Of a stretch of 55,042 nucleotides of DNA, positions 1-54,643 are shown in pieces. The notes beneath the pieces were generated by a model. That model worked only from the letters and a program-made list of their open reading frames with translations. It searched no databases and had not been told where the DNA came from. A program made the translations under genes and the position numbers. Position 1 is the stretch's first letter, and each line of letters opens with the position of its first letter. Source of the DNA: a virus; IMG/VR virus record IMGVR_UViG_3300045988_114880. One strand, given 5' to 3'.

Positions 1-119
1 TTGAAATTGGAAACGAAAGGTTGAATTGTTTTTATAGGCATTTCATTTACAAAATCCGTAAATTCACTCCATGAAGAAAACGATTTTGTTCCCTTCGGAT
101 TTCCCAAAAGTTCTCCCAG
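1..119. repeat. Terminal inverted repeat, left copy (perfect reverse complement of 54924..55042)
   Basis: Direct comparison: 1-119 equals the reverse complement of 54924-55042 with no mismatch; identity ends at 120/54923. Confidence 0.97.
105..119 (-). repeat. 15-bp crossover core CTGGGAGAACTTTTG (minus strand), in front of silent cassette A
   Basis: Same 15-mer as 529..543 (minus) and 54924..54938 (plus); an in-frame TGA lies two codons upstream on the minus strand. Confidence 0.75.
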
Positions 120-135
120 CTCTCAACTTATGCTA

Positions 136-531
136 TTATTCTGTTGCAATTTGTTGCCAATCCCTTAATGGTTCTGTCGTTTCAATAACCGTTAAATCAT
201 CCATGGCTTTTATCTCCATAATGCCAGCTGAATTATCAGGGCATTCCAGCATGATGTCAAAATAATTAGCGCTATTCAACTTTTGATACAGCTTAAATTG
301 GATATCATTTCCACATATCAATTTAAAATGGGAAACTCCATTACGATACCCACTTAATGAAGCTACATAGCAAGACGATATTCCATTTCTTAGCACATAT
401 AGTAAGCATATTACAGGTTTATATACATATAGTTCCTCTTTATATGCTATCTTGTATAATTTGCCTTGAATTAAATCAAAATATGCTGTTCTCCTTGTTA
501 ATCCCTTATTAGTATTTGTCGAAAGTGGCAA
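136..531 (-). CDS. Start-less alternative C-terminal cassette B of the invertible receptor-binding gene (about 130 codons)
   Basis: The minus-strand reading frame continues from core LGELL (543..529) into PLSTNTNKGL...; the only 'start' is the TTG of the core; an in-frame TAA lies 6 codons upstream of the core. Confidence 0.6.
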   Translation of the reverse strand: MPLSTNTNKGLTRRTAYFDLIQGKLYKIAYKEELYVYKPVICLLYVLRNGISSCYVASLSGYRNGVSHFKLICGNDIQFKLYQKLNSANYFDIMLECPDNSAGIMEIKAMDDLTVIETTEPLRDWQQIATE

Positions 532-543
532 AAGTTCTCCCAG
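529..543 (-). repeat. 15-bp crossover core CTGGGAGAACTTTTG (minus strand), in front of cassette B
   Basis: Exact third copy of the core, in frame with cassette B. Confidence 0.75.
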
Positions 544-614: not shown

Positions 615-1838
615 ATGCTAGAGAAGATACGATACAGGTTGGTCTTTAACCGCCAAAAGAAACTGAATAAGCAAGGCACGGCCCTTGTACAGATTGAAGC
701 TTATTTGAACCAAAGGAAAATCTACCTGAAGACCAATGTTTACCTCAAACCGGAATGCTGGAGCCGTGAGGGGGCACAAGTCATTAACCACCCCCAATCT
801 AACGAACTCAACACAATGCTCTATGAATACATCCTGTATCTGCAAGGCATAGAATTGGGGTATTGGAAGCGCGGAATACCTGCCACACTCTCACTACTGA
901 AGGATGCTGTCAAGAAGAAAAGTGCCGTGAATATCAGCTTCTCCACTTTCGCCAAATCAGCCATTGACAATTCGGACAAGAAGCAGTCCACCAAGGACAA
1001 CCTGCACTCGACACTGGCGGTCCTGCATGATTTCCGTTCCGGATTGGACTTCAAGGATCTTACCTATACATTCCTTCGTGATTTTGAGCAATACTTGAGA
1101 GAAAAGGGCAATGCGGTCAATACGATAGCCAAGCACATGAGACAGCTCCGTACCTTGGTCAATGAGGCAATCAACCAGGGATATATGCACGCCGACGCTT
1201 ATCCGTTCAGAAAGTACAAAATCAAACAGGAGAAAGGCAGACATGAGTTTCTTACCCCGGACGAGCTGAAGAAGCTGGAAACGGTCGAAGTGGAAGAGAA
1301 GTCCATGCGCCATGTGCTCGATGCCTTCCTGTTCTGCTGTTATACCGGATTGCGCTATTCTGACTTCTGCCAGCTCACACCTGAGAATTTCATTAGGATA
1401 AACGGCAAGCGGTGGCTGTACTTCAAATCCGTCAAGACAGGGGTGGAAATCCGTCTGCCGTTACATCTGCTGTTTGAAAGCAGGGCATTGGGCATTCTTG
1501 ACCGCTATCCGGATATCGGAAGTTTTGCCGCTTTGCCTTGTAACTCGGAAGTGAATAAGCAGCTTCGAAAGCTGGCCGGGTTATGTGGTATCAAAAAGCG
1601 GATAACCTACCATGTGAGCCGTCATACCTGTGCCACCCTGCTGATTCATCAGGGAGTGGCTATTACCACTGTGCAGAAACTGCTCGGACATACTTCCGTA
1701 AAGACCACACAGATTTATTCGGAGGTACTTTCCAGCACCATTGTGCGTGACTTGAAAAATGTTCAAAGGAAAAGGAAAAAAGTAAAGATGTTTCCCGATA
1801 AAGGCTTGAGAACATCTGATTTTATAGACAACCGGTAG
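615..1838 (+). CDS. Tyrosine site-specific recombinase, candidate shufflon invertase
   Basis: C-terminal HVSRHTCATLL...LLGHTSVKTTQIYSEV (R-H-R-Y catalytic signature); Bacteroides-type N-terminal arm-binding region; begins about 70 bp from core copy 2. Confidence 0.85.
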   Translation: MLEKIRYRLVFNRQKKLNKQGTALVQIEAYLNQRKIYLKTNVYLKPECWSREGAQVINHPQSNELNTMLYEYILYLQGIELGYWKRGIPATLSLLKDAVKKKSAVNISFSTFAKSAIDNSDKKQSTKDNLHSTLAVLHDFRSGLDFKDLTYTFLRDFEQYLREKGNAVNTIAKHMRQLRTLVNEAINQGYMHADAYPFRKYKIKQEKGRHEFLTPDELKKLETVEVEEKSMRHVLDAFLFCCYTGLRYSDFCQLTPENFIRINGKRWLYFKSVKTGVEIRLPLHLLFESRALGILDRYPDIGSFAALPCNSEVNKQLRKLAGLCGIKKRITYHVSRHTCATLLIHQGVAITTVQKLLGHTSVKTTQIYSEVLSSTIVRDLKNVQRKRKKVKMFPDKGLRTSDFIDNR

Positions 1839-4860: not shown

Positions 4861-6081
4861 ATGACTATGGCTACCGTTAATTTCTATCTTGACACAAGAA
4901 GGGCAAAGGCTAACAATAAATACCCTATTAAGTTACGTATCCAGCATGAAAGCAAATTATTGCTTTCTACGGGGTTTGATTCTGCCATTGAAGCATGGGA
5001 TGGAAGTTGCTATAATAAGAAAGAACCAAATTATAAATATAAAAATGCAGCATTGCGCAATATCTTTGCCGCTGTAGAGAATGAACTTCTTGTCATGCAT
5101 TCTATGGGAAAGCTTAAAGTGATAACCGATAAGATGCTGAAATCTCACTTGGAAGAAATTATTAGCGGCAGGAAAAAGAGTGAAAAGTCATTCATTGATT
5201 ATTTGGATGAATTTGTTTCATTGAAGAATAATGCCGGCACAAAGATTGTTTATGAAACTACCCGAAACAAACTGCTGGCTTTTGACCCTAATTGTACATT
5301 CGATACTATGGACAGAAAATGGCTTGTGTCATTCGAGAATTGGATGAGTGGAAGCGGAATGAAGATAAATGCCTATGCTATTCATATTCGGAATATTCGT
5401 GCTGTTTTCAACTATGCCATTGATGAAGAGATAACCACATTATATCCATTTAGGAAATTCAAGATAAAGAAAGAAGAAACCCGAAAGCGTTCTCTCACCA
5501 TCGAGCAGATTAGAGTACTGAAAGCCTATCCATGCGAGGAATTTGAGGAGAGATACAGGGACTTATTTATGCTGTCGTTTTATTTGATCGGCATAAATAT
5601 AGGGGATATGCTTCTGCTGAAAGAGGAGAACATAGTCAACGGGCGGATTGAATATCATCGTCGAAAAACTGGAAAATTGTATTCAGTGAAGATAGAACCG
5701 GAAGCGCAGGGTATAATTGATCGATATAAGGGAAGGCAATATCTCTTGAATGTTTTGGACGAGTATTCTAATTACAAAGATTTTATCAGTCGGATAAACA
5801 AGGCACTGAAGAATATAGGGCCATTCGAGCGTAAAGGGCTGGGAGGAAAGAAGGTTCGCCAACCGTTATTTCCGGATCTGTCCACATATTGGGCCCGCCA
5901 TTCATGGGCTACATTGGCTGCGGAACTTGATATACCTAAAGAAACTATATCTGCCGGTTTAGGACATGAGATTGGTTCTGATGTTACTAGTATCTATATC
6001 AAATTCGATCAGAAGAAGGTGGACGATGCCAATAGGAGAGTGATTGACTATGTGTTTGGAAAAGAAAAAGCCGGGAAATGA
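4861..6081 (+). CDS. int: Phage integrase (tyrosine recombinase) adjacent to attP
   Basis: WARHSWATLA...GLGHEIGSDVTSIYIKF catalytic region; position next to the tRNA-derived att site. Confidence 0.88.
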   Translation: MTMATVNFYLDTRRAKANNKYPIKLRIQHESKLLLSTGFDSAIEAWDGSCYNKKEPNYKYKNAALRNIFAAVENELLVMHSMGKLKVITDKMLKSHLEEIISGRKKSEKSFIDYLDEFVSLKNNAGTKIVYETTRNKLLAFDPNCTFDTMDRKWLVSFENWMSGSGMKINAYAIHIRNIRAVFNYAIDEEITTLYPFRKFKIKKEETRKRSLTIEQIRVLKAYPCEEFEERYRDLFMLSFYLIGINIGDMLLLKEENIVNGRIEYHRRKTGKLYSVKIEPEAQGIIDRYKGRQYLLNVLDEYSNYKDFISRINKALKNIGPFERKGLGGKKVRQPLFPDLSTYWARHSWATLAAELDIPKETISAGLGHEIGSDVTSIYIKFDQKKVDDANRRVIDYVFGKEKAGK

Positions 6082-9154: not shown

Positions 9155-9234
9155 CATTATCAAATTAAACTGATACAAAGAAACGAAGATTAATTCAGAT
9201 TTCAAATAGTATAAACATATTAAAATACACGATT

Positions 9235-9561
9235 ATGAGAACAAGAGAATTTTTACACGAAGTAATGAGCCTTGCTTGGCAGTTCGTTAAGCGTAATGGC
9301 TACACCATGAGCGAAGCAATGAAGGTCGCTTGGGCTAATTTGAAACTGAAAGGTGAGATGAAGAAGAAGATAGTGAAGTTCTACTTCAAAAAAGTGGACG
9401 GTTCTGTTCGTGAGGCATACGGTACACTAAATGAAAAGCTGATGCCTGCCATCACTGGTACTGACAATAGAAAGAAGAATGATACCGTCCAGACTTACTA
9501 TGATACTGAACGCCAAGAATTCAGATGCTTCAAAAAAGCTAATCTGATGTCAATCGCATAA
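9235..9561 (+). CDS. Early protein, DUF2693/SH3-barrel-like
   Basis: F.KVDGSVREAYGTL...YYDTERQEFRCFKKANL pattern, recalled from the Bacteroides DUF2693 family. Confidence 0.5.
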   Translation: MRTREFLHEVMSLAWQFVKRNGYTMSEAMKVAWANLKLKGEMKKKIVKFYFKKVDGSVREAYGTLNEKLMPAITGTDNRKKNDTVQTYYDTERQEFRCFKKANLMSIA

Positions 9562-9566
9562 AAGAT

Positions 9567-9818
9567 ATGGATATGAATGCTTACACGATTAACCAGCAGT
9601 TGGATAGCCTTTATAAAGATTTAGAGGCAGCTCACAACAACGATGAAAGGACTGTTTGCCTGATGTTCAATGCTGATAGCAAGAAAGAAGTTATCCAGTT
9701 GATAACGGATGAGATAGACAGTTTGGAAGATGCCTTAAAAGGTTTTGAAACTTGTGAAGATGATGGCATGGATTACGATGCTCTATGCCGGGTACAAGGT
9801 ATCAGCCGATACGCATAA
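9567..9818 (+). CDS. Hypothetical acidic early protein (83 aa)
   Basis: ORF tightly following the previous gene. Confidence 0.6.
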   Translation: MDMNAYTINQQLDSLYKDLEAAHNNDERTVCLMFNADSKKEVIQLITDEIDSLEDALKGFETCEDDGMDYDALCRVQGISRYA

Positions 9819-10169
9819 TACACGATTATGCAACGCACGACAGCCCTACGGACGGATTGAACGGCAACCGATAGCGAGAATCGGGTAGGGTACTATTGAT
9901 TAGTTCTTTGAAATTCTGTAAAAGCAATTACGGTGTAATTCATAAGCCGTTTTTGCCAACCAAAGATAACGAACGCACATAAGCAAGTTGGGGCTTGTGA
10001 GCTGTGCAATGTTTAACAATTAATAGAAAACACCGCAAAGAATCGTCTTTGAGCAGTGAGCATACGGGTTAGGCGTCCGTACTGTTTTCGACAATATAGC
10101 CTGTACTGAACTGAAATAAGGTTCTGCTATTCGATTAGGGTACAGGTACTTATTTAAATTTATACGATT

Positions 10170-10352
10170 ATGAAAACAATCCAATTCATTTTATCTATAT
10201 TGGTTAGTATATGTGCTGCCGGTATGCTTTACGGGGCTATCACTACTTACAGTCCTATGAAAATATTCTCTATCACTATAATGAGTGTTATATGTGTAGG
10301 GTGTGTGTCGCTCATGAGAATAACTTATAGAGAACTTAAAACAGACCGCTAA
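10170..10352 (+). CDS. Small two-TM membrane protein (60 aa)
   Basis: Two hydrophobic segments; start codon carries the ACGATTATG motif. Confidence 0.55.
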   Translation: MKTIQFILSILVSICAAGMLYGAITTYSPMKIFSITIMSVICVGCVSLMRITYRELKTDR

Positions 10353-10567
10353 AAGGTAGTCCTATAATCCGGCACAAGGCGCATGGGGATGAGTGCACAA
10401 TCACCTTGTAAACCAGCTGGGCGGTAATTTATGAAGTAGCATTGTTGGAATGCGTGTAAGCGATTAATTGTTGGTATTAACTTATATTCTAATTTATATA
10501 TTCATTTAGCTTACAAGAAGTAGGTTCGACTCCTACCTTTTTAACGACATTTTAAATTTATACGATT

Positions 10568-10753
10568 ATGACAGTGGAAGAATTAAGAGGCATGACGCAT
10601 GAAGATTTAGTAAGGCGTGTGCAGGAACTGGAAGAGGCTAACGAGAAATTAGCTGAAGAGAAAAATACATGGTATAAATCTTGGAGTGATTTGAACCGGA
10701 AGTTTGATCATTTCAAGAACGCGGTTAAAAGCATTGTTATGATAATAGATTAG
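10568..10753 (+). CDS. Hypothetical coiled-coil protein (61 aa)
   Basis: ACGATTATG start motif; a stem plus T6 terminator follows at about 10783-10818. Confidence 0.55.
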   Translation: MTVEELRGMTHEDLVRRVQELEEANEKLAEEKNTWYKSWSDLNRKFDHFKNAVKSIVMIID

Positions 10754-11736: not shown

Positions 11737-11756
11737 ACCCTTTAAATTTTACGATT

Positions 11757-12686
11757 ATGAGTCTTATTAAAAAATCAAATGAATTAGTAATTCCTACCAC
11801 TGTAAAGATGATGATTTACGGTCAGGCTGGTATGGGAAAATCAACAGTGGCATTGAGCGCACCGAAACCGTTATTATTGGATTTCGATAATGGCGTTAAG
11901 CGTATGAATATGGCGCATTTGGAAAACATAGATACTGTACAGGTCACTTCATGGAGTGATGTTCAACAGGTCTTGCAGGAGGATTTGTCTGCCTATCAGA
12001 CAATCGTGGTAGATACCATTGGCAAGATGATGGATTTCATCATTACTTATAAATGTGGCAGCCGCCAACCGTCTATCAAGGATTGGAGCGGTATCAATGC
12101 GGAGTTTTCATGGATGACACGAACACTTTCGGGGCTTAACAAGCACATCATTTTCGTTGCCCATCGCGACACAAGAAAAGAAGGTGATGATACGGTGTTT
12201 ATCCCTGCCTTGCGTGAAAAATCCTACAACTCTATCGTTACTGAACTGGATTTGCTCGGTTATCTTGAAATGAAAAGCGAAAGAGGCGTCCAAAGACGTA
12301 CTATTACTTTTGACCCAACTTCAAGAAATGACGGTAAGAATACTTGCAATCTTCCTTCAGTGATGGAAGTTCCTACCATCCTTGACAAGAATGGTAATCC
12401 AACCGCAAAGAACGACTTTATCACCGCCAAGATAATCAATTCGTATTTGGGTATGCTTGCTGCCAAGAAAGAGGCACAGGAAAAGTATGATAAAGTTATT
12501 GAAGAGATAAAAGAACAGATCGAACTTATTACGGATGCGGAATCTGCCAATAATTTTATCGCGCAAATAGATAACTTTGAGCACGTTGGTTCTTCAAAGC
12601 AAATGGCGGCAAAGTTGGTAGCTAACAAAGCGAAGTCTTTGAATCTGAAACTTAATTCAGAAAAAAAATATGAACCAGCAGCCTAA
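11757..12686 (+). CDS. Sak4-like (AAA_24) RecA-fold recombination ATPase
   Basis: Walker A YGQAGMGKST and Walker B IVVDTIG; size and position typical of phage Sak4. Confidence 0.65.
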   Translation: MSLIKKSNELVIPTTVKMMIYGQAGMGKSTVALSAPKPLLLDFDNGVKRMNMAHLENIDTVQVTSWSDVQQVLQEDLSAYQTIVVDTIGKMMDFIITYKCGSRQPSIKDWSGINAEFSWMTRTLSGLNKHIIFVAHRDTRKEGDDTVFIPALREKSYNSIVTELDLLGYLEMKSERGVQRRTITFDPTSRNDGKNTCNLPSVMEVPTILDKNGNPTAKNDFITAKIINSYLGMLAAKKEAQEKYDKVIEEIKEQIELITDAESANNFIAQIDNFEHVGSSKQMAAKLVANKAKSLNLKLNSEKKYEPAA

Positions 12687-19069: not shown

Positions 19070-20083
19070 ATGGACGAAGGATTTTTGAGGCTAAGCCGCA
19101 GGTTTTTCTCGAATGAAATGTGGAATGAAGCCCGTACTTTTAGCAGTTGCGAAGCGTGGTTAGACTTAATTCAGTCTGCACGATTTGAGGCAACGCCCCG
19201 AAAGGAGAGTATCGGAGGTCGAGAAATCTCTTATTCAAGAGGTCAATATCCTGCATCCATAAGATTTCTGTCACAGCGTTGGAAATGGTCTGAAAAGAAG
19301 GTGCGTTCCTTTCTTGTGCATCTTAGAAAGAAAGGTATGATAACTGTTGAGTGCAATCAAGGAATGAACCTTATAACCTTATGTAAATATGAAGAATATA
19401 ATCCAATGGGCACAACCAAGGGCACAAGTAAGGACACAGGTATTGAAAAGGAAATCAATGAATTAAGACACGAATGGGCACAACTAAGGGCACAACTTGG
19501 GGCACAGCCCATGAACAACAATCTACCGCAATCCGAACTTTTACAAAAATCAGGGCACACAGAGGGCACAAATACAAAGAAAGAAGAAAGAGAGTATATA
19601 GATATATCTCTACATCAAAAGAAAGAAAATACTCCTGACGGAGTATCAAAGAAAGCCAAGCTTTCTTCGCCATCCCCCTCTGAAAAGATTGATTACAGCG
19701 GATTGATGGAATACTATAATACCACATTCAAAGACAGACTCCAGCAGATAAGATCAATGACTGATGTGAGAAAAAAGGCTGTAAAAGCCCGGATAGCCCA
19801 ATATGGGAAAGAGTCAGTGAGGAGTGTTTTCAATCTCATTCTTCAATCCCCGTTCTTACTTGGAGCTAATGACCGCAATTGGAAATGCGACTTTGATTGG
19901 ATTTTCAAACAAGCAAACTTTACTAAAATATTGGAAGGAAACTATAATGGGACAAGACTTAGTAAAAATCAACAGGATAGCGAGCAGCGAAAACGTGATT
20001 CAGTTCTTGCAGTCGCTACAACCGTTAGAGAAGCTGCCGCAAAAAAGAGAAAGGAACTTGAAGCAGAGGGCGTTATTGAATAA
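19070..20083 (+). CDS. Replication initiator / replisome-organizer-like protein containing the iteron array
   Basis: N-terminal winged-helix-like region; internal GGGCACA iterons; position next to the helicase. Confidence 0.5.
   Translation: MDEGFLRLSRRFFSNEMWNEARTFSSCEAWLDLIQSARFEATPRKESIGGREISYSRGQYPASIRFLSQRWKWSEKKVRSFLVHLRKKGMITVECNQGMNLITLCKYEEYNPMGTTKGTSKDTGIEKEINELRHEWAQLRAQLGAQPMNNNLPQSELLQKSGHTEGTNTKKEEREYIDISLHQKKENTPDGVSKKAKLSSPSPSEKIDYSGLMEYYNTTFKDRLQQIRSMTDVRKKAVKARIAQYGKESVRSVFNLILQSPFLLGANDRNWKCDFDWIFKQANFTKILEGNYNGTRLSKNQQDSEQRKRDSVLAVATTVREAAAKKRKELEAEGVIE
19408..19573 (+). repeat. Iteron array (about 8 copies of GGGCACA/GGACACA): putative origin of replication
   Basis: atGGGCACAacc, aaGGGCACAagt, aaGGACACAggt, atGGGCACAact, aaGGGCACAact, tgGGGCACAgcc, caGGGCACAcag, gaGGGCACAaat within about 165 bp. 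Confidence 0.6.
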
Positions 20084-20639: not shown

Positions 20640-20848
20640 GAATAACCGTTTACTGGGTAACAAGAAATCCGGATGTTATCGTAAGAATCCGGAAAAAGTT
20701 CAATATCCCAAGTTATACTTCCGTGAACTACGAAACAGAATGTGAAATCAAGAATGAAGACTTTCCACTGTTAGAAGAAACAGAACGAAGGGGATTCATT
20801 CGAATTAGAAATAAGAATACACGATTATGCAAGGAACAGACAAACTGA
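20636..20848 (+). CDS. Hypothetical protein (70 aa)
   Basis: ATGA-coupled ORF. Confidence 0.55.
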   Translation: MRITVYWVTRNPDVIVRIRKKFNIPSYTSVNYETECEIKNEDFPLLEETERRGFIRIRNKNTRLCKEQTN

Positions 20849-28327: not shown

Positions 28328-28383
28328 AAGGACTGCACCCACTTCGGTGGGTGCTTTAATTGACGAATTTAAAATACACGATT

Positions 28384-28788
28384 ATGAAGAAGATTAAGGC
28401 AATTATTGAAAAGGCGAATGATGGGGGTATTTCCGTATATTCGGAGGATGTGAACGGAGCGTACGGTTTTGGGCTTACAGAGCAGGAAGCGAAAGATGAT
28501 TTTATGTCCGTACTTGAAGAGCAGGCTGAATATTATAAAGAAAAACATGGAGACTTTCCTGTGTGGTATAAGTCTGGGTATTCTGTTGATTACGTATATG
28601 ATTTAAGCGGATTCTTCGAGGCATTTCCTTTCATAAATGCCAGTAAGTTTGCAAAGGAAATTGGCATGAATGAATCTGTCATGCGGAAATATAAGGGAAA
28701 GATTGTAACTGCTTCCGATAAACAAAGAGCTCTTATACAAGAGAGATATAATAATCTTCTCAGAAGAATGGAAGCTGTCAGATTCTGA
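28384..28788 (+). CDS. hicB: HicB-family antitoxin
   Basis: IEKANDGGISVYSEDVNGAYGFGLTEQEAKDDF (UPF0150/HicB N-domain pattern); directly downstream of hicA. Confidence 0.7.
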   Translation: MKKIKAIIEKANDGGISVYSEDVNGAYGFGLTEQEAKDDFMSVLEEQAEYYKEKHGDFPVWYKSGYSVDYVYDLSGFFEAFPFINASKFAKEIGMNESVMRKYKGKIVTASDKQRALIQERYNNLLRRMEAVRF

Positions 28789-30414: not shown

Positions 30415-30450
30415 TCCGGTAGCCTTATGGCTACCACAATACACACGATT

Positions 30451-30651
30451 ATGAAAGCGGATTTAGTTTTAGTTATCAGCCCTGAAGCCCCACTGATGAA
30501 GCAACTGGGCAAGGTATTGGGTAAGATGGTAACCCCTTATGACTTCTCTACTATAGAGAGGGGTGAAAAGTACATCACCATACAGCATGATGAAACTGGG
30601 CTTGTAGTGGCTTATACGAGTGAAGAAAGATTGAATGTGAAAATGAATTAA
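30451..30651 (+). CDS. Hypothetical protein (66 aa)
   Basis: ATG 30451 carries the ACGATTATG motif. Confidence 0.5.
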   Translation: MKADLVLVISPEAPLMKQLGKVLGKMVTPYDFSTIERGEKYITIQHDETGLVVAYTSEERLNVKMN

Positions 30652-30794: not shown

Positions 30795-30997
30795 ACTCAA
30801 TAAATGTAAACGGTTGCAGCGTATGTCAACCCGGTAAAGAAAATTACACCACCTACAACACCAGGTTGAGAGGTAAAAGAGTGAGAATGTACCAGTACGA
30901 TTACCGTACTGAAAGTGGTGAACTCTTTGCTTGTTGTGCGCCTACCTTAGAGGCGTGTAGAGAAAGACGGGATAAATGGCTTAGTTCACGACAATAA
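30791..30997 (+). CDS. DUF3873-like Cys-rich protein
   Basis: YQYDYRTESGELFACCAPTLEACRERRDKWL pattern. Confidence 0.5.
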   Translation: MNSINVNGCSVCQPGKENYTTYNTRLRGKRVRMYQYDYRTESGELFACCAPTLEACRERRDKWLSSRQ

Positions 30998-31010
30998 GCC
31001 GATTGTCGTG
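30987..31010 (+). promoter_or_regulatory. Conserved hairpin CACGACAAT-N6-ATTGTCGTG(TAT), copy 1
   Basis: 9-bp perfect stem; near-identical copies at 37278 and 48658. Confidence 0.6.
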
Positions 31011-31068
31011 TATAACGATTGAAGATATTTCGTTATCTTTGGTTGTGGTAGTACCTTTGGGGTACTAT

Positions 31069-31140: not shown

Positions 31141-31173
31141 CTATTGAGTATTAATTAAAAAAATGACACGATT

Positions 31174-31563
31174 ATGAATGTATTAACATTACAGATTAAA
31201 AAAGATAGTTTTCAATCTATCTTAAAAGGTGAACAAGACATAGAACATAGATATGTTTACCCCTCAAATGTTACAAGATATGTATATTTTGAACACGATG
31301 GCAAAAGATACAAACGGCAAGAAGATATACCAAATGATGATAAGGATGTGGATGTAGTACCAATAAAGTATGACGCTTTGGTTCTTATAAATGGCAGACG
31401 AAAAGATGCGCCACGTCTTACGGTGGAGGTTAAGAGTGCTGAATTTATCATTTTTACAGATGAAGATGGTAACGACCAAGTATTTGAAGAAAACGGCAAA
31501 GAATATCTTGTTTGCCAAGTATGGTATCATTTGGGTAAGATACTTAGTACAGATAATGTTTGA
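31174..31563 (+). CDS. ASCH/PUA-like domain protein
   Basis: LTLQIKKDSFQSILKGEQDIEHR resembles the ASCH N-terminus; ACGATTATG start motif. Confidence 0.45.
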   Translation: MNVLTLQIKKDSFQSILKGEQDIEHRYVYPSNVTRYVYFEHDGKRYKRQEDIPNDDKDVDVVPIKYDALVLINGRRKDAPRLTVEVKSAEFIIFTDEDGNDQVFEENGKEYLVCQVWYHLGKILSTDNV

Positions 31564-37268: not shown

Positions 37269-37277
37269 ATACCATTT

Positions 37278-37301
37278 TACGACAATCGTTTCATTGTCGT
37301 G
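37278..37301 (+). promoter_or_regulatory. Conserved hairpin ACGACAAT-N6-ATTGTCGT(GTAT), copy 2
   Basis: Same sequence family as 30987 and 48658; directly upstream of the head genes. Confidence 0.6.
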
Positions 37302-37337
37302 TATCACCTATCTGATAATTTCTCACATAGCTTATTA

Positions 37338-43411: not shown

Positions 43412-46400
43412 ATGTCAAAATTATATTTTAAGATAGGTAGTGACTGGGAAGAAGTTGTAAGACTTCGTAATGAAATTGCAAAATTAAAGCAGGAGTTAAT
43501 GAGCATGGATGGCACGCAGACTCCTGCTGCTTTCAAGGCTTTGAATGCCCAACTTGCTGCATCCAACCAAAGATTGGATGAGTTGGTGACTAATGCAGCC
43601 AAAGCTGGAGCGGAGATGGAAACGGGATTCAAAAGGAAAATCTTCGATGCTTCTCAGGTCGTGAATGGATTGTCGGAAAAAATAACATTTCAACGTGGAA
43701 CTATCCAACAATTGAAAAATGAATTGTCCGGTCTTAAAGACAAGTATCGTGAAGCATTAAAACAGGATGGTGATACTTCTTCCTTAGAAGCTAAAATAAG
43801 GTCTACAAATGAAAAATTGAAAGAGCAAAAAAGTTCTTTATTTAACCTTACCCAGGAACAGGCTAACGCCCGCTTGTCAGTAAAGAAGCTCCGCGATGAA
43901 TATGCTTTGTATCGGCAAGATGGTGAAAAAAATGTAGATGTAACTAAGCAGGTGGAACAAGCCATGTCTAATATGGGTAAGAAACTGCTGGGAGGTTATT
44001 CAATCAAAGAATTCTTGTCAAGTATGATTCGTGTTCGTGGCGAATTTCAATCCATGCAGACCGCTATTGAGACTATGGTTGGAAAGGATATGGCAGGGCA
44101 ACTGATTCCGCAAATCAAGGAGCTGGCTAAGATTTCTCCACTTACTATGTCAGATATGGTTGGAGCAGAAAAGATGATGCTTGGATTTAACATACAAGCA
44201 GAAGACACTATCAAATACTTGAAAGCCATTAGTGATATTTCTATGGGGGAATCCAGTAAGTTCAATTCGCTAACTTTGGCATTTTCACAGATGTCAGCAG
44301 CGGGTAAACTTATGGGGCAGGATTTGAATCAAATGATAAACGCTGGATTCAACCCGTTACAGATTATCTCCGAAAAGACCGGAAAATCTATCGCAACTTT
44401 GAAAGATGAAATGTCCAAAGGTGCTGTTTCCGCTGAAATGGTTCAACAGGCATTCATTGATGCAACTTCCGCAGGTGGTAAGTTCTATAATATGTCTGAG
44501 AATGCCTCAAAGACTATCAATGGTCAGTTGTCTATGATGCAGGATGCTTTGGATTCCGTGTTTAACGAATTGGGAACAAAGTCGGAAAGTGTTATCATGG
44601 ACGGTATTCAAATGACAACTTCGTTGATTCAGAATTATGAAACAGTAGGTAAGATCTTGGCTGGATTAGTGGTTACTTATGGTACATACCGGACCGCAGT
44701 GATGCTTGTTACTGCTGCCGAAAGTAAACATACTCTTGTGGAGATTGGACTTACCAATGCCCGTTTATTGGCACGAAAAGCGCAGTTAGCTTTAAACGCT
44801 GCAATGCTTACCAATCCTTATGTGTTGTTGGCTACTGCTGTAGTAGGACTTGGAGTTGCAATGTTGGCTTTCCGCGATTCGGCAACAGAAGCAGAAAAGG
44901 CACAGAGAAGGTTTAATGAACAGCAAGAAGAAGCTAAAAAGCAAGAAGAAGAACACAAACAGAAGATTGATTCCCTCGTACAAAGTTCTCGTGATATAGC
45001 GTTGTCGGATTTACAAAGAGGTCGAAGTTTAGCGGAGTTAAGAAAAGAATACCCTAAGATATTCGCTCAATATGACATCGAAACCATTAAGTTGGCTGAT
45101 ATACTTAAACTAAAGCAACAGATAACGGAAGAAGATGCGAAACGTGCCGGAGAAAAGCAAACCAAGGAACTTTCTAACATTGAATCTGAAATCAAATATT
45201 ACGAGAATCTGCTGAAAACTCTTTCCGGTCAGCAAGGCGTTGATGGATATGTGAAGAAACTAAAAGAATTGCGTGCTATGCGTGATGTCATGCTGCAAGA
45301 AAAAGGCAAAGGCATCTCCGAACAGTTCATTTCCAATCTTAAAGATGTTAATACTAATGAGTTTGACCGCTACATCTCTGAGTTGGAGAAGCGTATCAGA
45401 GGAAAGGGGGGAAATGGAACTGTGAAACTTCGTTTGCCTATTGATATTAAGGGTACTTTGTCTGATGAAGCAATCTATAATGTGAAAGACATAAAAACAC
45501 TTATAGATACAGCAAAATCAGTCAAGCAAACCCGAATTGATTCAGAGAAGAATAAAACTACCTACAAGCAGGATTATGAGAAAGCGAAGAAAGACTGGGA
45601 TGATGCTAAGAAGAAACTTTCTGAAATAGAAAAGAATAAATCCAAGTTTACTTCAAAGCTGTATGAAGAAGCTAAGAAACGAGTAGAAACAACTGAAAAA
45701 GCCTATAAAAATTTGGGCGGTATTACTGGTAGTTCTTTGACCAAGCAGGAAAAAGCTGCTGAAAAGCAAAAAAAAGAACAAAAAAAGACAGCCGAACAAC
45801 TTCTTTCACTTCACCGTCAGAACCAACAGGATGAAATCAACCTGATGATAGAAGGCACGGAAAAGAAGTTGAAACAGATTGACCTTGATTATCAGAAACA
45901 GATTGATGCGATAAGAAAACAGGAGGAAGAATGGAGCAAAGCCGGTAACGGTAAGCTGACCGACAAGCAGGCACAGAAAATTTCAGAAGCTTATACCAAT
46001 GCCGAAAGTATGAGAGATAAAGATATTTCCGATGTAACTGAAGGACAGCTGAAAGCCGAACAACAGGCTTTGAACGACTACTTGAAAGAATATGGCACGT
46101 TCCAGCAGCAGAAATTGGCTATCGCCCAAGAGTATGCGGAAAAAATAAGGAAAGCACAGGAAGAAAACGGTGTTAATAGTGCACAAGTAAAGTTACTGGA
46201 GAAACAACGTGATGTTGCCATACAGAACAAGGAAACAGAAGCCATAAAAGCCAATATAGATTGGGTTACTGTGTTCGGTGAGTTTGGTTCCATGTTTTCC
46301 GACATGATAAAGCCCGCCTTGGACGAAGCGAAAAAATATGTACGGACTGACAAGTTCAAGAACTCCGATCAGGCAAGCCAGAAATCATTGATTGACGCCA

Positions 46401-48235
46401 TCAGCCAGATGGAAAAGTCTTTGGGTGGTACAAGTGGAGTCAACTTCAAGAAACTTGGAGAGGATGTAAAAGCCTATCAAATAGCAGAACAGAATCGTAT
46501 CAGTGCCATAGGGATTGAAACAGCTGCTTTGGAAAGACTAAAGAAATCACAGGATGATTACACCAAAGCGCAGAAGGGCGGAACGGAAAGTGAGAAACAA
46601 GCCGCAGCAAACGCTCTTGAAACAGCACGGCAGAATGCTGACATTGCATCCGCCAATGTGAAGACACAGACTGATATCGCCAATCAGGCCCAGCGTAATG
46701 TGACTGATACCGCCACCAGACTGAAAGCAAGCATGGAAAATTTGTTGGGAGGCTTGCAGCAGATTTCATCCGGTGGATTGTATAACGCATATAGCGGAAT
46801 TATCAAAACCGTGAACGGATTCAAGGATGTCATAGGAAAAACGTCAGAATCTCTTAAGGAGGTCCCCATCGTCGGATGGATTCTGTCCATCATTGACGTA
46901 CTCAAAGACGGATTAAGTGATCTTGTCGGTGGTCTGCTTGATGCTGTTCTGAACGCTGTCAGTGGAATTATCGGTGATGTCTTGTCAGGGGATTTGTTTG
47001 TCACAATCGGCAAGTCATTGAGGAACGGCATAGGAAACATCCTGAACGCAATCTCATTCGGAGGCTTCAACTCCTTGTTTGGAATAGGTGGAAACGCCAA
47101 GGAAGTACAGGAAACGATAGACAGGCTGACGGACAGGAATGAAACTTTGCAAACGGCCATCGAGGATCTGACTGACGAGATGAAGGCAAGCAAGGGAATG
47201 AAATCGGTTGAATCTTACAGGGAAGCTGTAAAGTATCAGGAGGAAGTCAATAAAAACTATCTGCAAATAGCAAAGGAGCAAGCCGGATATCATAAGAGCC
47301 ACGGCAGCTGGCAGCATTATCTGAAATGGACGGATGAAATGCTGGAACACGCAAGAAAAGCTACCGGCATGCAGGATTTCTCCGGCACCGATTCCTTGTG
47401 GAATCTGACCCCCGAACAGATGAAAGCTCTACGGTCGGACGTATGGTTATGGGATATCATGGAATCTTCCGGTAAGGGAGGTTACGGTGAGCGTGTTACC
47501 GACAAGCTGGATGATTATATAGAGCAGGCAGGAAAACTGGAAGAACTGACCGACAGTCTTTATGAGGGCCTGATCGGAATGTCATTCGATTCCATGTATG
47601 ACAGTTTTATAAGCAGTCTGATGGATATGGAGAAGAGTGCGGAGGATTTTGCTGATGACATATCCAAATATTTCATGCAGGCGATGCTGTCAAATGCCAT
47701 CGGTGAACAGTTTAGTGACAAACTGAGGACATGGTATGATAAATTCGGTGAAGCCATGAAGGATGATGGTACGCTTGACAATAATGAGCGTAAGGAGCTG
47801 ATGGATGAATACATGGGTTATGTGGACGAAGCCATGAAGCTCCGTGACGAGCTTGCCGCAGCAACCGGATATGATAAGATTTCGCAAGAATCCTATTCTC
47901 AATCTTCTTCATCAAGAGGGTTCGGCACTGAAATGACGCATGAAGATGCAGGAGAGTTGAACGGTAGGTTTACAGCATTGCAGATTACAGGAGAAGAGAT
48001 AAAGAATCAAAATATCATTCAATCTCAATCACTTAATCTACTGACAGTAAAAGCAGATGCTCTACTTTCCATAAATACGGAAACAAGAAATATTGCTGAT
48101 GATACGCGGGATTTGATAGCGCAATCCTATCTTGAATTGGTACAGATTTCAGAAAATACAGGGGCAATCGTCAAACCTATTCAACAGATGCAAAGAGATA
48201 TAGCAGAGGTTAAAAAGAATACAGCAAAATTATAG
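43412..48235 (+). CDS. Tape measure protein (1607 aa)
   Basis: Size, coiled-coil composition, central hydrophobic segments and position. Confidence 0.85.
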   Translation: MSKLYFKIGSDWEEVVRLRNEIAKLKQELMSMDGTQTPAAFKALNAQLAASNQRLDELVTNAAKAGAEMETGFKRKIFDASQVVNGLSEKITFQRGTIQQLKNELSGLKDKYREALKQDGDTSSLEAKIRSTNEKLKEQKSSLFNLTQEQANARLSVKKLRDEYALYRQDGEKNVDVTKQVEQAMSNMGKKLLGGYSIKEFLSSMIRVRGEFQSMQTAIETMVGKDMAGQLIPQIKELAKISPLTMSDMVGAEKMMLGFNIQAEDTIKYLKAISDISMGESSKFNSLTLAFSQMSAAGKLMGQDLNQMINAGFNPLQIISEKTGKSIATLKDEMSKGAVSAEMVQQAFIDATSAGGKFYNMSENASKTINGQLSMMQDALDSVFNELGTKSESVIMDGIQMTTSLIQNYETVGKILAGLVVTYGTYRTAVMLVTAAESKHTLVEIGLTNARLLARKAQLALNAAMLTNPYVLLATAVVGLGVAMLAFRDSATEAEKAQRRFNEQQEEAKKQEEEHKQKIDSLVQSSRDIALSDLQRGRSLAELRKEYPKIFAQYDIETIKLADILKLKQQITEEDAKRAGEKQTKELSNIESEIKYYENLLKTLSGQQGVDGYVKKLKELRAMRDVMLQEKGKGISEQFISNLKDVNTNEFDRYISELEKRIRGKGGNGTVKLRLPIDIKGTLSDEAIYNVKDIKTLIDTAKSVKQTRIDSEKNKTTYKQDYEKAKKDWDDAKKKLSEIEKNKSKFTSKLYEEAKKRVETTEKAYKNLGGITGSSLTKQEKAAEKQKKEQKKTAEQLLSLHRQNQQDEINLMIEGTEKKLKQIDLDYQKQIDAIRKQEEEWSKAGNGKLTDKQAQKISEAYTNAESMRDKDISDVTEGQLKAEQQALNDYLKEYGTFQQQKLAIAQEYAEKIRKAQEENGVNSAQVKLLEKQRDVAIQNKETEAIKANIDWVTVFGEFGSMFSDMIKPALDEAKKYVRTDKFKNSDQASQKSLIDAISQMEKSLGGTSGVNFKKLGEDVKAYQIAEQNRISAIGIETAALERLKKSQDDYTKAQKGGTESEKQAAANALETARQNADIASANVKTQTDIANQAQRNVTDTATRLKASMENLLGGLQQISSGGLYNAYSGIIKTVNGFKDVIGKTSESLKEVPIVGWILSIIDVLKDGLSDLVGGLLDAVLNAVSGIIGDVLSGDLFVTIGKSLRNGIGNILNAISFGGFNSLFGIGGNAKEVQETIDRLTDRNETLQTAIEDLTDEMKASKGMKSVESYREAVKYQEEVNKNYLQIAKEQAGYHKSHGSWQHYLKWTDEMLEHARKATGMQDFSGTDSLWNLTPEQMKALRSDVWLWDIMESSGKGGYGERVTDKLDDYIEQAGKLEELTDSLYEGLIGMSFDSMYDSFISSLMDMEKSAEDFADDISKYFMQAMLSNAIGEQFSDKLRTWYDKFGEAMKDDGTLDNNERKELMDEYMGYVDEAMKLRDELAAATGYDKISQESYSQSSSSRGFGTEMTHEDAGELNGRFTALQITGEEIKNQNIIQSQSLNLLTVKADALLSINTETRNIADDTRDLIAQSYLELVQISENTGAIVKPIQQMQRDIAEVKKNTAKL

Positions 48236-48238: not shown

Positions 48239-48655
48239 ATGAATGAATTATTAATTAATGGCGAAAACGCTTATACAACATGGGGCGTGAGAATGGGAGA
48301 GGGGTTTCTTGATGTTATTGGGGCATCCGCTCCCATGAAGGATTTTATTGAGAACAAAAGCCGACTTGAACATGGGAAACGGGTAATAATCAATAATCCT
48401 AAAGTCGATGAGAGGGAAATAACTCTTTCGTTCACTATCGAGGGTAATTCTCAGTCTGACTATCAAGCAAAGAAGAAAGCTTTCTTTGATGAGCTGTATA
48501 AAGGTGTGGTTGATATTCAAGTTCCGGCTAACAGTAATGAGATTTATCATCTGATTTATCTTGGGAAAAGCGTTGCTTACGCACAGAGTTTAAACCGAAC
48601 TTTCGGAAAAATTTCAGCCAAGTTTAACGAGCCAAATCCGGCAAACAGAAGCTAA
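48239..48655 (+). CDS. Distal tail protein-like (by position)
   Basis: 138-aa ORF after the tape-measure gene. Confidence 0.45.
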   Translation: MNELLINGENAYTTWGVRMGEGFLDVIGASAPMKDFIENKSRLEHGKRVIINNPKVDEREITLSFTIEGNSQSDYQAKKKAFFDELYKGVVDIQVPANSNEIYHLIYLGKSVAYAQSLNRTFGKISAKFNEPNPANRS

Positions 48656-48657
48656 TT

Positions 48658-48681
48658 CACGACATTGGTTTTATTGTCGTG
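48658..48681 (+). promoter_or_regulatory. Conserved hairpin CACGACATT-N6-ATTGTCGTG(TAT), copy 3
   Basis: Same family as 30987 and 37278; upstream of the fibre gene. Confidence 0.6.
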
Positions 48682-48686
48682 TATGT

Positions 48687-48717
48687 GAGTGCTCAAAATT
48701 GGGCACTCTTTTTTTTA
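48687..48717 (+). terminator. Terminator/attenuator hairpin between the tail and fibre genes
   Basis: GAGTGCTC/GGGCACTC stem followed by T8. Confidence 0.55.
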
Positions 48718-48735
48718 TCCCCGAACTTTGAAGAC

Positions 48736-51700
48736 ATGGAACAAATCGACATCAAAGACATATCCGGTGCTATCCAGCTTACAACTTTGATCAATGAAGG
48801 CTGCAAGCGTAAGTTCACTCTGATGAAGGAGGACTACATCATGTTAAAGTTCTCCTTAGAGAATCCCATATATTTCAAACTTGGCTCATACGTGGAATGT
48901 AACTTCGGATTGTTCGAGGTGTGCGACTTGCAGAAGCCCGCATTCAACACCAATACCGCCGGCTACGACTATGAGCTTCAGCTTGACGCTTACTACTGGA
49001 AATGGAAAAACAAAATCTTCAAATATACCCCGGAGACGACCGGACAGGAGGCGTCCTGGAACCTGACCGCTCCGCTTGACGTACAAGTCGGTATAGTCCT
49101 TAGAAATCTGAAAGCTCTTGGTTACACATACAAAGGACAGGATTTTGTTTTCTCCATTGATTCCACAGTCGAAAACAAGTCCCAGTTGATGAGTTACGAC
49201 AACATCAACATCCTTGACGCTTGTTTTGAGATGGCGAAGAAATGGGATTGCGAATGTTGGGTGACTGAAAACATCATCCATTTCGGGCGTTGTGAGTCCG
49301 GTGACGCGGTGGATTTCGAGATCGGGAAAAACGTGCAGGAAATGTCACAGTCAGAATCCCAGTCCACCTATGCCACCCGTATCTACGCTTTTGGTTCCAC
49401 CCGTAACATACCGGCAGACTACCGCCCCATTGACGAGACCGTGGTTGTGAACGGCGTGGTGCAGCGCAGGCTGATGCTTCCCGAAGGCACTCCTTACATT
49501 GACGCTTATCCTGATATGACTACCGAGGAAGCCGTCGAGCAGGTGGTTATCTTCGATGAAGTCTATCCTCGAAGAACAGGCATCATGTCGGATGTCACCA
49601 CTATCGAAGTGACGGACAAGGTGGAGAATGAGGACGGCACAACCACCGAGGAAAAATGGAATGCCTACCGCTTTAGGGACACGGGTGTTAACTTTTCCGA
49701 GAAATATATCCTCCCCGGTCAGGAGCTGAGGATACGTTTCGCATCCGGGCTTCTCAACGGTTTGGAGTTTGCCGTGAAGTTCAATCCTGAGGGAAAGCCG
49801 GAGAAATTGGAGGATGGCGGATGGAACCCTGAGGCACAGCTTTGGGAGATAGTCAGGAATGAGGACTATGGCAGACCGCTTCCCGGTGATGTGCTCTTTC
49901 CCCAGGATGGAGATGAATATGTGCTTTCCGGCTGGGACAGTACGAAAATAACCGAGCTGGGGCTTGTGGGTACCGCCGAGCAGGAGTTGAAGGAAAAGAC
50001 TGAAAAGTACGCTGCCAAATCCAAGATAGACCCGAGTACCTATGGCTGCACGATGATGTCAAATGACGCATACCGTGAGGATGGCGTTCATAATTTCTAT
50101 AGCATCGGTCAAAAGGTCAACCTTATCAACAAGGCTTATTTCGAGAACGGAAGACAGTCAAGGGTTATCGGATTTGAATTCAATCTTGATTATTCCTTTG
50201 ACTCACCTGTTTATACTGTCGGGGAAACCGCCGCCTATTCCCGTATCGGGGAGCTGGAGGAAAAGGTTGAGAGCCTTACCCTGAAGGGACAGACCTATAC
50301 GGGCGGTGGTGGCAGCGGTGTGTATGTGATCGGAAGCCACGACTCCACCCCAGCAACAGACCATAACGTGTATTCCGCATTGCGCTCGCTGATCATGTTC
50401 ATGCGCAAGGATACGGAGGAACGCACCGGTTTCCTATTATCCCTGTTGGGCGGAACCGTCATCAAGAAATACGCCAAGTTCGGTGATTTCGTTACCGGCG
50501 TTTCTGGAGGTTACATCGGTGAGGACGCCCGTGCCGAGCTGGAGGCTTTGGTCCTGCGCAGCTCTCTGAGTGTACCAGAACTTCGTTTCAACCGTCAGAC
50601 CTATTTTGAAGGATATAATACTATAAGTCCCGGCGGAGGGCTGAAGATAAAAAGCTTTGTCGCCAATAGTGACGGCAGCTATACTGTCATCCCTGATCTG
50701 GAGGATGGTGTACCGCTGGGACAGAAGCCGGACGATATCCTCCTAGGCTTCTGGCATGACAAAAGCGTCACTACCGGTGACTTTATTGGTTTCCGGAAAA
50801 TACAGTACCGTATCACTTCCGCAGATTACGACGAGAAGACATTCGTGATGGTTCCGCGTCCCGGATATGAGTTCGTTCCCCATAACGAGATGCGTCTCGG
50901 ACAGACGGGGAACTTCACCGACAAGGAGCGTCAGACTTATATCATCATAGACGTGCGTGACGGTAACTGCTGCATCACCCTTGTTGACAATGCCAACACC
51001 TGGGACCCGGAGCCGGCACAGATGAAGAGCTGGTTCGGCAAGAAGAAGGGTATGACCATCAACGGGATCAACTGCGACAGGTTCTCGGCAGTATTGCAGG
51101 ATATCATCATGACGGGATTGATTTTTCAAATTGATGAAATTACCGGTAGCACAGTCCGCGTTCCTATCGACTTCCCTAGCTGGGAGCCGGGCAGGAAGTA
51201 TGCGTATTATTCCCGTGTGCCCCATAACGGTTCCACATGGTTGTGCGTCAATGACAAGGGCACTACTTCCGAGCCATCCGAAAACAATCCGGACTGGCTT
51301 GTATCAGCCGCCAAAGGTGACAAGGGTGATCCGGGACTGTCTGTAATAGGTGGCGGTCATTGGGAATCCTCTAAGACCCCATACGAGGTCAATACCATGG
51401 TCACTTTGGCGGGCTGTGTTTTTATCTCCAAGGTGAAAACATCCAATCCTCCGATTAAAATTGCAAGGTTCAGGAACGGCAATTATCGAAAGAAAAAGGA
51501 TGGCGGTTATATCCTTGCCGGGAAATCAGCCGACTGGACCGTGCATGAAGACTGGGAGATGCTGCTGGACGGTCGTGAACTTAAAGGTGAGAGTATCACC
51601 TTCTTGGGTGAGTTCGCATCCCATCCGTCCAATCCCAAGGAGGGTGACAGCTACCGAAATACGGCTGACCATTGTACTTACATATACCGGAATGGTTTGT

Positions 51701-53949: not shown

Positions 53950-54243
53950 ATGAGAATAAATTTTGCACAATTTCCTATTTACGACGGGATTAAGAAAGAA
54001 AAACTGATAGCCAACAACATCACTGAGGCCTACGGTGACTGGATATACAAGAACGTAGCGGGTTTGAAGGCGCATCTCCTTGCTGAGAAGATATTCAAAT
54101 CTACTGCTGAAGGTGTCGAGATTGACGAAGAAGAGGTGGATATCATAAGACGCTCCACCTCCATGCTGCCCGGTCTGCTGGCTGATTCTTTGAATGATTA
54201 TTTAGATAAAAAGGAGGAACAACATGAAAAAGGTATATTGTAA
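53950..54243 (+). CDS. Hypothetical acidic protein (97 aa)
   Basis: ORF after the fibre gene. Confidence 0.55.
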   Translation: MRINFAQFPIYDGIKKEKLIANNITEAYGDWIYKNVAGLKAHLLAEKIFKSTAEGVEIDEEEVDIIRRSTSMLPGLLADSLNDYLDKKEEQHEKGIL

Positions 54244-54643
54244 CAACCTTCTGGCAAAGGTGCTGCTTGCGTTCAGTTCTTGCCATACGATAACAATCGG
54301 TCCGTTTGTTTTAAGCAAGCGACCGGAAGAGAAAATCACTCAGAAAGTGAGAAACCATGAGTGTACCCACGCCCGTCAATGGGTTGAGATGGCAGTTGCC
54401 ATCGGTACAGTTATCTGGATCTTGCTGTTGTGTTTTGACCTTTCCGCCTGGTGGCTGGTACTGGCCGGGCTGGCATTCTATCTCTGGTATGGTGTGGAGT
54501 GGCTGGTCAGGGCGGTACGGTTGAAGGATGCCGGCAGGGCGTATAAGACGGTATCGTTTGAGAGGGAGGCATATTCCAACGAGGATGATCCGAATTATAT
54601 TGAGAACAGTAATTATTTTGCATGGGTGAAGTATTTGTTTTAA
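54224..54643 (+). CDS. Two-TM membrane protein with an HExxH-like motif
   Basis: NHECTHARQW followed by two hydrophobic helices. Confidence 0.5.
   Translation: MKKVYCNNLLAKVLLAFSSCHTITIGPFVLSKRPEEKITQKVRNHECTHARQWVEMAVAIGTVIWILLLCFDLSAWWLVLAGLAFYLWYGVEWLVRAVRLKDAGRAYKTVSFEREAYSNEDDPNYIENSNYFAWVKYLF

Follow-up and report, generated by a model that had tools for sequence, protein, structure and literature searches.

The two ends of a 55,042-nt viral contig, IMG/VR record IMGVR_UViG_3300045988_114880 (analysed over its whole length and referred to here as the window), very probably form, together with an adjacent recombinase gene, a tail-fibre shufflon of a BV01-like phage that operates by site-specific inversion. 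The system comprises two silent cassettes at positions 1–543, here called B and A, an expression site at 54660–55042, and a tyrosine recombinase gene at 615–1838. In its layout, a constant 88-codon part ends in an 11-nt site, and each of the start-less cassettes downstream consists of that site, 85–140 variable beta-rich codons, a stop and a short tail. A forward and then a reverse cassette block converge, with the recombinase gene directly after them. In the proposed mechanism, the recombinase would pair a forward site with a reverse site and invert all DNA between the two; where the forward site is that of the constant part, a different cassette would become the expressed C-terminus, presumably changing the host surface structure recognised by the tail. 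We infer both the assignment of this activity to the adjacent recombinase and the binding of receptors by the cassettes.

On nucleotide comparison the window phage is a BV01-like temperate siphovirus of Phocaeicola vulgatus. In the tail gene, the constant part, cassette B and the recombinase gene it shares 96.7–100% nucleotide identity with L004, an IMG/VR prophage that comes from an isolate genome and is likely BV01 itself. Among the matches listed, the GTDB representative carrying the constant part is P. vulgatus.

The window contains exactly three copies of a 15-nt core, CTGGGAGAACTTTTG, at 105–119 and 529–543 on the minus strand and at 54924–54938 on the plus strand; no further copies with up to two mismatches are present in the window, and the chance expectation for a given 15-mer in 2 x 55 kb is ~1e-4. 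All three copies read LGELL in frame. The plus-strand copy lies at the expression site, where an open reading frame (ORF) from the ATG at 54660 encodes the constant N-terminal part of a small tail-fibre-like gene (54660–54923, plus strand) and the core starts exactly 88 codons on, in the same frame. The first 104 nt of A past the core (54939–55042, plus strand) continue this frame as a fusion to the constant part (GNPKGTKSF...) and run off the contig. The identical 104 nt recur at 1–104 on the minus strand, in a silent, inverted context beside the tail of B. There A, read from its core at 119–105, begins LGELLGNPKGTKSF and again runs off the contig, and its core is preceded two codons upstream by an in-frame TGA, followed by a codon for E. 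Read on the minus strand from 543, B begins LGELLPLSTNTNKGL and ends in IATE, comprising 135 codons with the core included (139–543); it terminates at TAA (136–138), followed by TAG, and a 16-nt spacer (120–135) separates it from the next core. These stops and the spacer make up the B tail, TAATAGCATAAGTTGAGAG (120–138, minus strand). Upstream of the B core, an in-frame TAA (559–561) lies six codons away and is followed by S-Y-N-L-D; these codons and the recombinase gene leader form a flank (544–614) that relatives show to be fixed. Neither A nor B has an ATG between its upstream stop and its core, and the sole candidate start in B is the TTG that forms the last codon of the core, from which a 131-amino-acid (aa) ORF is listed mechanically. 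An earlier sequence-only reading had described two stacked, start-less cassettes, each preceded by an inverted 15-bp core, with a B cassette of about 130 codons stopping near 135, a 16-nt spacer, and in-frame stops two to six codons upstream (TAA for B, TGA for A) without an ATG; the exact core copies and the translations bear this description out.

Across the family, the conserved site is shorter, 11 nt, CTGGGAGRACT, reading L-G-E/G-L; the identity extends to 15 nt in the window because A and B both go on with TTTG. A 10-bp motif, TGGGAGAACT, is contained in CTGGGAGAACTTTTG and hence also has three exact copies in the window. On either side of the array the window matches L004, through tail genes at one end and, at the other, genes for the recombinase and for lysis, so it represents a circular phage genome opened within the array. 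The array interior is absent from the contig, and A and B are just the recombinase-proximal end of a larger array.

Relatives contain the junctions that inversion at the core would generate. The B region and the L004 copy of B show 100% identity over 435 nt. In two IMG/VR contigs (L012 and L044) B follows the constant part at the core as an in-frame fusion, and so it does in four entries of protein databases: P0001 (226 aa, with 139 member sequences), P0004, P0006 and P0019, the last from 55 contigs with NCBI genomes among them. A is the expressed cassette in L003 and L004, where the complete protein of constant part and A has 187 aa. The expectation of the sequence-only reading that both cassettes become in-frame fusions to the 88-codon part is thus supported for A and B alike; the search that it had proposed for relatives in which B is joined to the constant part recovered them, and recombinant junctions are thus observed. 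Four other proteins, P0100, P0107, P0110 and P0114 (256–376 aa), appeared to join B to different N-termini and were rejected as read-through gene calls: they span two to three neighbouring cassettes and carry W where the DNA has the TGA stop of a cassette, most likely from a gene caller's alternative genetic code on short contigs.

The constant part is encoded by 176 IMG/VR stretches, and the best 80 of these are 89–100% identical over residues 1–90 and diverge completely thereafter. When the fetched loci were all searched for CTGGGAGRACT with an open frame of 60 codons or more behind it, 433 sites resulted, overlapping loci not being de-duplicated. At 80% identity the cassettes fall into ~60 clusters, most of which occur both fused and silent and in both orientations, and every cassette is an intact ORF in the frame of its core. 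In the 25 loci (19 distinct contigs) with both the constant ORF and a recombinase homologue, the arrays have 3–12 cassettes over 1.5–4.6 kb. Lineages that share cassettes include two N-terminal types and a version of only 16 aa in Bacteroides phage BS-TP2, with recombinases of 50–100% identity and a near-identical 11-nt site.

Comparisons of these arrays provide evidence for their rearrangement by inversion. First, all 25 loci have the same order, a forward block, a reverse block (>..><..<) and then the recombinase gene, which fits the inversion model because nested inversions between forward and reverse sites preserve exactly that pattern. Second, L088 contains the same five cassettes as L004 with order and orientation exactly reversed, and only the two outer flanks (the constant part on one side, the recombinase-side flank encoding '*SYNLD' on the other) are unchanged; a single inversion between the first and last sites accounts for the difference. 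Third, where the neighbouring recombinase protein is 100% identical, arrays differ in the cassettes they hold and in their order. In relatives with a 98–100% identical recombinase (L004, L088 and L122–L129), the '*SYNLD' context stands before the last cassette, whichever that is. In the window B lies beside the recombinase gene, followed by A, which differs from L004 and is the same as in L128, whose array ends <A <B recombinase. The exact tail of B (window 138–120) follows B in 36 of its 40 occurrences, with 23 different cassettes downstream. Arrays with between 5 and at least 12 cassettes also lie within megabase-scale contigs from isolate genomes, among them the complete chromosome CP103067.1, and the architecture is therefore not an assembly artefact.

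The position of the exchange can be narrowed from the segregation of the bases around the sites. Across 280 distinct sites, base -1 and those upstream track the upstream context and base +12 and those beyond track the cassette; positions 1–7 and 9–11 are nearly invariant, and position 8 (A or G) mostly goes with the cassette. The stop-plus-spacer tail likewise tracks the upstream cassette in 308 of 352 adjacent pairs, compared with 127 of 352 for the downstream cassette. Because the tail and upstream bases segregate from the cassette bases at this interval, exchange falls inside CTGGGAG(R)ACT, and we infer that the 7-bp CTGGGAG is its probable seat. An overlap of 7 bp is typical of tyrosine recombinases. 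The site is asymmetric, with its cassette side conserved and its other side not. In two arrays a variant 7-mer occupies nearly all sites, CTGGAAG at 5/5 in BS-TP2 and CTGGGGG at 6/7 in L136, which in this small sample fits a need for matching overlaps. In L136 (5701–8052, GCA_024790235.1) only the recombinase-proximal site keeps CTGGGAG, and L103 contains CTGGGAG and CTGGGGG in a 5:4 mixture.

Two relatives have unusual records. The constant part has no match among INPHARED records, and the sole INPHARED match to the first 2 kb of the window is the recombinase gene of BS-TP2 (PQ571275.1), which is 96% identical in nucleotide sequence to that of the window. By motif, an unannotated homologous array was found in this phage (L001 1–900 and L002 9700–10556; record positions 56724–57555 and 1–900), with the core variant CTGGAAGRACT (LEEL/LEGL) at all five sites and a constant part of just 16 aa (gp85). 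The BS-TP2 record, labelled a complete genome, begins and ends inside the array, with ~141 nt repeated at both ends. In L012 (6001–12279, IMGVR_UViG_3300029535_000154), constant ORFs flank the array on both sides and face each other, the second being of a different N-terminal type (MSNLNLENIVGF...AAKMTMQSLASK) with mirrored tail genes beyond, and there is no recombinase gene between the two constant ORFs. L012 was considered as a second, recombinase-less architecture and rejected; it is more likely an assembly chimera connecting two phages by way of cassettes they have in common, or else a genuine inverted dimer of the two made by recombination in trans.

The window is bounded by a perfect inverted terminal repeat with arms at 1–119 and 54924–55042, which begins at the first base of the core (the preceding base differs, gtc at one arm and gag at the other) and finishes at the contig ends. 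ENA contigs encoding an identical recombinase protein have names beginning k119_, and 119 is a MEGAHIT k value. Because the repeat runs from core to contig end and equals k, its extent is set by the assembly and not by biology. A de Bruijn assembler stops a contig at the first shared k-mer where two left contexts converge on one sequence. The sequenced population probably had both inversion states, constant>A ... <X <B recombinase and constant>X ... <A <B recombinase, so that the assembler stopped one k-mer (119 nt) into A at both ends, and A in the window is most likely one cassette caught in two states rather than a second copy. The sequence-only reading had noted identity limited to the core for B and extending over 119 bp for A. 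Both observations stand, but the longer stretch is the assembly k-mer; as a longer recombination site for A it was rejected, since it spans from core start to contig end and equals the k value. Similar breaks occur in relatives: L128, a contig with a NODE_ name, and L129, a scaffold, begin exactly 55 nt past a core, and 28 of the 80 related IMG/VR contigs end within ~40 codons of one. Among the 92 loci with at least two sites, no cassette is duplicated in opposite orientation at 95% identity or more over 119 nt. Direct near-duplicates occur in two arrays alone, L070 and L137. In L070 (6264–9200) a three-cassette block recurs in tandem every 1,629 nt, the first 119 nt of each cassette being identical; this block may be a real duplication or an assembly artefact.

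The gene at 615–1838 (plus strand) encodes a 407-aa tyrosine recombinase that is the probable shufflon invertase, judged from its domains and position. It matches Pfam Arm-DNA-bind_5, Phage_int_SAM_5 and Phage_integrase (catalytic domain E = 4.7e-22), adjoins cassette B and is divergently transcribed from it. In all 25 loci (19 distinct contigs) that hold both the constant ORF and a recombinase homologue, the homologue directly follows the array and shares its strand with the constant ORF, at 50–99% identity. The model of the sequence-only reading is supported here, but it had not named this gene, the likely enzyme. A Pfam sweep of 65 ORFs of the window identified two tyrosine recombinases, and among the best 25 of 36 Pfam families no serine recombinase or Resolvase family was found. 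The second tyrosine recombinase (4861–6081, 406 aa) is 29% identical to the first. In relatives with a 100% identical shufflon recombinase, the 4861–6081 module is replaced by an nSTAND1/AAA gene and a 391-aa integrase on the other strand; thus 4861–6081 likely encodes the lysogeny integrase, and 615–1838 belongs with the array. As a candidate invertase, 4861–6081 was rejected on its low identity, its location in the repressor region and its exchange for another integrase in relatives. Its neighbours are an ORF of 401 aa and an S24 repressor-like gene on the other strand.

The constant ORF lies at the end of the tail module, past two small ORFs, downstream of genes for the tape measure protein (43412–48235), a Dit-like protein (48239–48655) and a 1750-aa tail protein (48679–53931). 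Neither the constant part with A nor that with B matches a Pfam, NCBIfam or PHROG family, and the constant-plus-cassette protein has 125 matching clusters among 1.84 billion cluster representatives. AlphaFold predicts cassette B as a compact, all-beta sandwich with a mean predicted local distance difference test score (pLDDT) of 88.9 and a predicted template modelling score of 0.81. The confidently modelled cassette has pLDDT values of 90–97; in a monomer model of full-length constant part and B, the constant N-terminal half is poorly predicted. Structure prediction of B had been suggested by the sequence-only reading as a check for a receptor-binding tip fold, and it gave a confident all-beta model; neither this nor the full-length model has a Foldseek match in the PDB at E <= 1e-3. 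The best PDB matches of the cassette, beta-sandwich domains of phage baseplates and tailspikes, are the N-terminal, tailspike-like region of WceF, a baseplate protein of Klebsiella phage KP1, and T4 gp9, at template modelling scores of 0.44–0.51 normalised to the query and E = 2e-3 to 5e-2. In BFVD, the full-length model has 32 matches at E <= 1e-3, annotated tail fibres among them. Position in the tail module, the hypervariable C-terminus and the predicted fold support a putative role at the tail tip or in receptor recognition. Just upstream of the constant part, 54224–54643 encodes a 139-aa protein with an HExxH motif (NHECTHARQW) and a weak match to a PHROG 'protease' family.

A shufflon of this kind has been reported. 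A Research Square preprint of 16 Sep 2026 that is not peer-reviewed (PMC13596623) describes a tail-fibre shufflon in BV01-like phages of P. vulgatus, with a 1.7-kb recombining window between the recombinase and the tail-fibre gene's 3' end, directional 10-bp motifs TGGGAGAACT, a count of three cassettes with six variants, and viral-tagging reads that cover every junction configuration. No shufflon is mentioned in the original paper on BV01. The phage group, the motif and the place between the recombinase gene and the tail gene's 3' end are the same as here, and the distance in L004 from the first site to the last is 1,702 bp, compared with 1.7 kb in the preprint. The system in the window is the shufflon of that preprint and is already described. 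To it are added here the ~55–60 cassette families, arrays with as many as 12 or more cassettes, their convergent single-ended layout, the interval in which the breakpoints fall, the variant cores and the BS-TP2 array.

The design itself is older. The Rin shufflon of Bifidobacterium prophages (Mavrich et al. 2018, PMC6109161) has a constant part (Rc) of the receptor-binding protein, variable cassettes (Rv), an asymmetric 11-bp rix site (TTCCCTAACCC) before each Rv and a flanking tyrosine invertase, and its receptor-binding protein was reported as related to that of lactococcal phage 1358. The two systems share a constant N-terminus, start-less C-terminal cassettes, one short asymmetric repeat for each and a tyrosine recombinase. 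However, rix is unrelated to CTGGGAGRACT and the host phylum differs; compared by design and site only, the window system appears to work like Rin and, as far as shown, is not a member of the Rin family by descent. Shufflons with tyrosine invertases in Bacteroidales and other bacteria, which act on hsdS of Type I restriction-modification systems and on SusC/SusD and include Tsr-type enzymes, are common among gut Bacteroidales (PMC9881135). They likewise place a tyrosine recombinase beside inverted repeats within coding sequence to yield alternative protein variants, but they concern chromosomal host genes, other targets and other sites.

In the R64/IncI1 shufflon, the tyrosine recombinase Rci mediates multiple inversions that swap C-terminal segments of the pilV adhesin at the tip of the conjugative pilus. 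Its segments are mostly double-ended, and its sfx sites, 19-bp repeats, are short and asymmetric with one conserved arm and an exchange region of ~7 bp. The present system differs in its repeat, which is other than the sfx consensus, in its target, a phage tail module gene rather than pilV, in its one nest of single-ended cassettes, and in a recombinase with a Bacteroidota arm-binding N-terminal domain. Gin, Cin, Pin and Min (of Mu, P1, e14 and p15B; summarised also in PMC6109161) are serine invertases that act at gix-type sites with a Fis-dependent enhancer and vary host range by joining alternative tail-fibre C-termini to a constant N-terminus, with multiple crossover sites in the case of p15B Min. 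Here, in contrast, the adjacent enzyme is a tyrosine recombinase, the cassettes are much smaller (85–140 codons), and inside the segments no separate gene for an assembly chaperone is evident. R64 and the serine-invertase systems are analogues, not relatives.

Several points weigh against an active shufflon of this description. The coexistence of two states within the sample is suggested by a single feature, the inverted terminal k-mer, and a true inverted duplication of A may also be compatible with the window. L004 has five sites and five single-ended cassettes, compared with the three cassettes and six variants of the preprint. The receptor-binding role is argued indirectly, given the lack of a family match and of a PDB match at E <= 1e-3. 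The 615–1838 product is of a general Bacteroidota integrase type rather than of a dedicated invertase family, and the NCBIfam model for tyrosine-type DNA invertases matches it weakly, at 25.9 bits against a cutoff of 221. The arrays of two chromosomal loci, L130 and L131, abut apparent host genes, with no recombinase gene within the 10-kb locus. The apparent host genes behind the arrays of L130 (7892–10420, a megabase metagenome contig, ERZ27273579) and L131 (8732–10420, an isolate-genome contig, GCA_024789925.1) encode a DUF134 protein and a SusC-like TonB-dependent receptor; GCA_024789925.1 holds two such prophages ~330 kb apart in opposite orientations.

If A is truly duplicated, the cassettes could be static relics of past homologous recombination among related phages at the conserved LGELL-coding stretch, with no switching at present. 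Although the window alone fits two copies of A as well as one copy in two states, and direct near-duplicates exist in L070 and L137, this explanation, the best surviving of the alternatives, is very improbable. It does not predict the total lack of inverted cassette duplicates in 92 loci, the strict convergent grammar with a recombinase gene always adjacent (25 loci), or the exact reciprocal inversion between L004 and L088. Different cassette orders beside a 100% identical recombinase protein, cassette ORFs that are all intact in the frame of the core, and the junction heterogeneity at read level in PMC13596623 also argue for current inversion.

Slightly less credible again is the view that B, and perhaps A, is an independent small gene, translated alone, for example from the core TTG, as a tail or chaperone protein. 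The mechanically listed 131-aa TTG ORF and the frequency with which public gene callers call cassettes separately (for example P0120, 131 aa) would agree with it. Yet the last codon of the recombination core is the single candidate start, stops occur in frame 1–11 codons upstream, and the 5' context of a silent cassette varies with its upstream neighbour, so that no fixed promoter or leader is available; the same cassette is moreover fused in frame to the constant part in many genomes.

The silent pilS donors of Neisseria are also start-less and share a short conserved 5' stretch with the expression locus, pilE. The resemblance of the present cassettes to such donors raises the prospect of non-reciprocal gene conversion, in which silent cassettes are copied into the expression site, but we give this account even less weight than translation as independent genes: the exchange between L004 and L088 is reciprocal and keeps all cassettes, expressed cassettes are not duplicated, nested inversions would leave just this orientation grammar intact, the neighbouring gene encodes a site-specific recombinase, and homology limited to 11 nt is too short for RecA-type conversion. 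Least probable of all, to the point of being negligible, is that stacked cassettes and inverted ends are mis-joins of co-occurring strains with different C-termini, since assembler-defined contig ends, the chimera-like L012 and the duplicated end of the BS-TP2 record, which starts and ends within its array, are outweighed by the same architecture inside megabase-scale isolate contigs such as CP103067.1 and by the 435 nt of perfect identity between the B region and the isolate-genome prophage L004.

With ~55–60 interchangeable modules carried 3 to at least 12 at a time, the shufflon may be an open, family-wide library rather than a closed three-segment switch. Beyond inversion within one genome, it is conceivable, though on balance unlikely, that the shufflon recombinase also trades cassettes in trans between co-resident phages or prophages. 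If so, exchange in trans would generate inverted dimers or chromosomal rearrangements such as the head-to-head arrangement of L012, and cassette trading between phages would be programmed and site-specific.

Several further features of the window lie outside the shufflon. A motif consisting of an A/T-rich stretch and ACACGATTATGA occurs with an ATG at gene starts at 9222–9239, 9815–9832, 10153–10173, 10551–10571, 11740–11760, 20814–20831, 28371–28388, 30438–30455 and 31161–31178; it resembles a promoter or leader element that early and middle genes have in common. An element able to form a hairpin, TTTACGACAAT...ATTGTCGTGTAT, has three copies (30985–31013, 37276–37304 and 48656–48684), two of them directly 5' of GTG-initiated structural genes (starting at 37299 and 48679). 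Among the 65 ORFs, Pfam also matches a HigB toxin, a head-fibre protein, a protein related to crAss001_48, two C-5 cytosine DNA methylases and a Tad2-like domain (Thoeris anti-defence). Within the ORF 19070–20083, positions 19405–19507 hold a periodic repeat of 12 nt (AAGGGCACAA-like), and the gene for the 1750-aa tail protein contains a 130-nt internal repeat at 75% identity, with copies at 51429–51558 and 52704–52833, 1,275 nt apart.

The exact 139-aa protein encoded at 54224–54643 is indexed in 19,101 blocks of a public assembly collection, and the BV01-like phage family is therefore extremely prevalent in human gut metagenomes. The shufflon is thus a real system in a very prevalent gut phage, but one that has been described already (PMC13596623), with a design known since Rin in 2018. 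The locus systematically breaks short-read assemblies, producing contigs that end one k-mer past a core, inverted terminal repeats and head-to-head chimeras, and such contig ends should not be taken for genome termini. The cassette catalogue may provide a ready set of small, modular domains, predicted to fold confidently, for engineering phage specificity. For the phages themselves, a tail-tip switch with many alternatives would let a single genotype hedge against phase variation in the capsules and surface proteins of Bacteroidaceae, and it could explain a breadth of host range that is hard to reproduce in culture.

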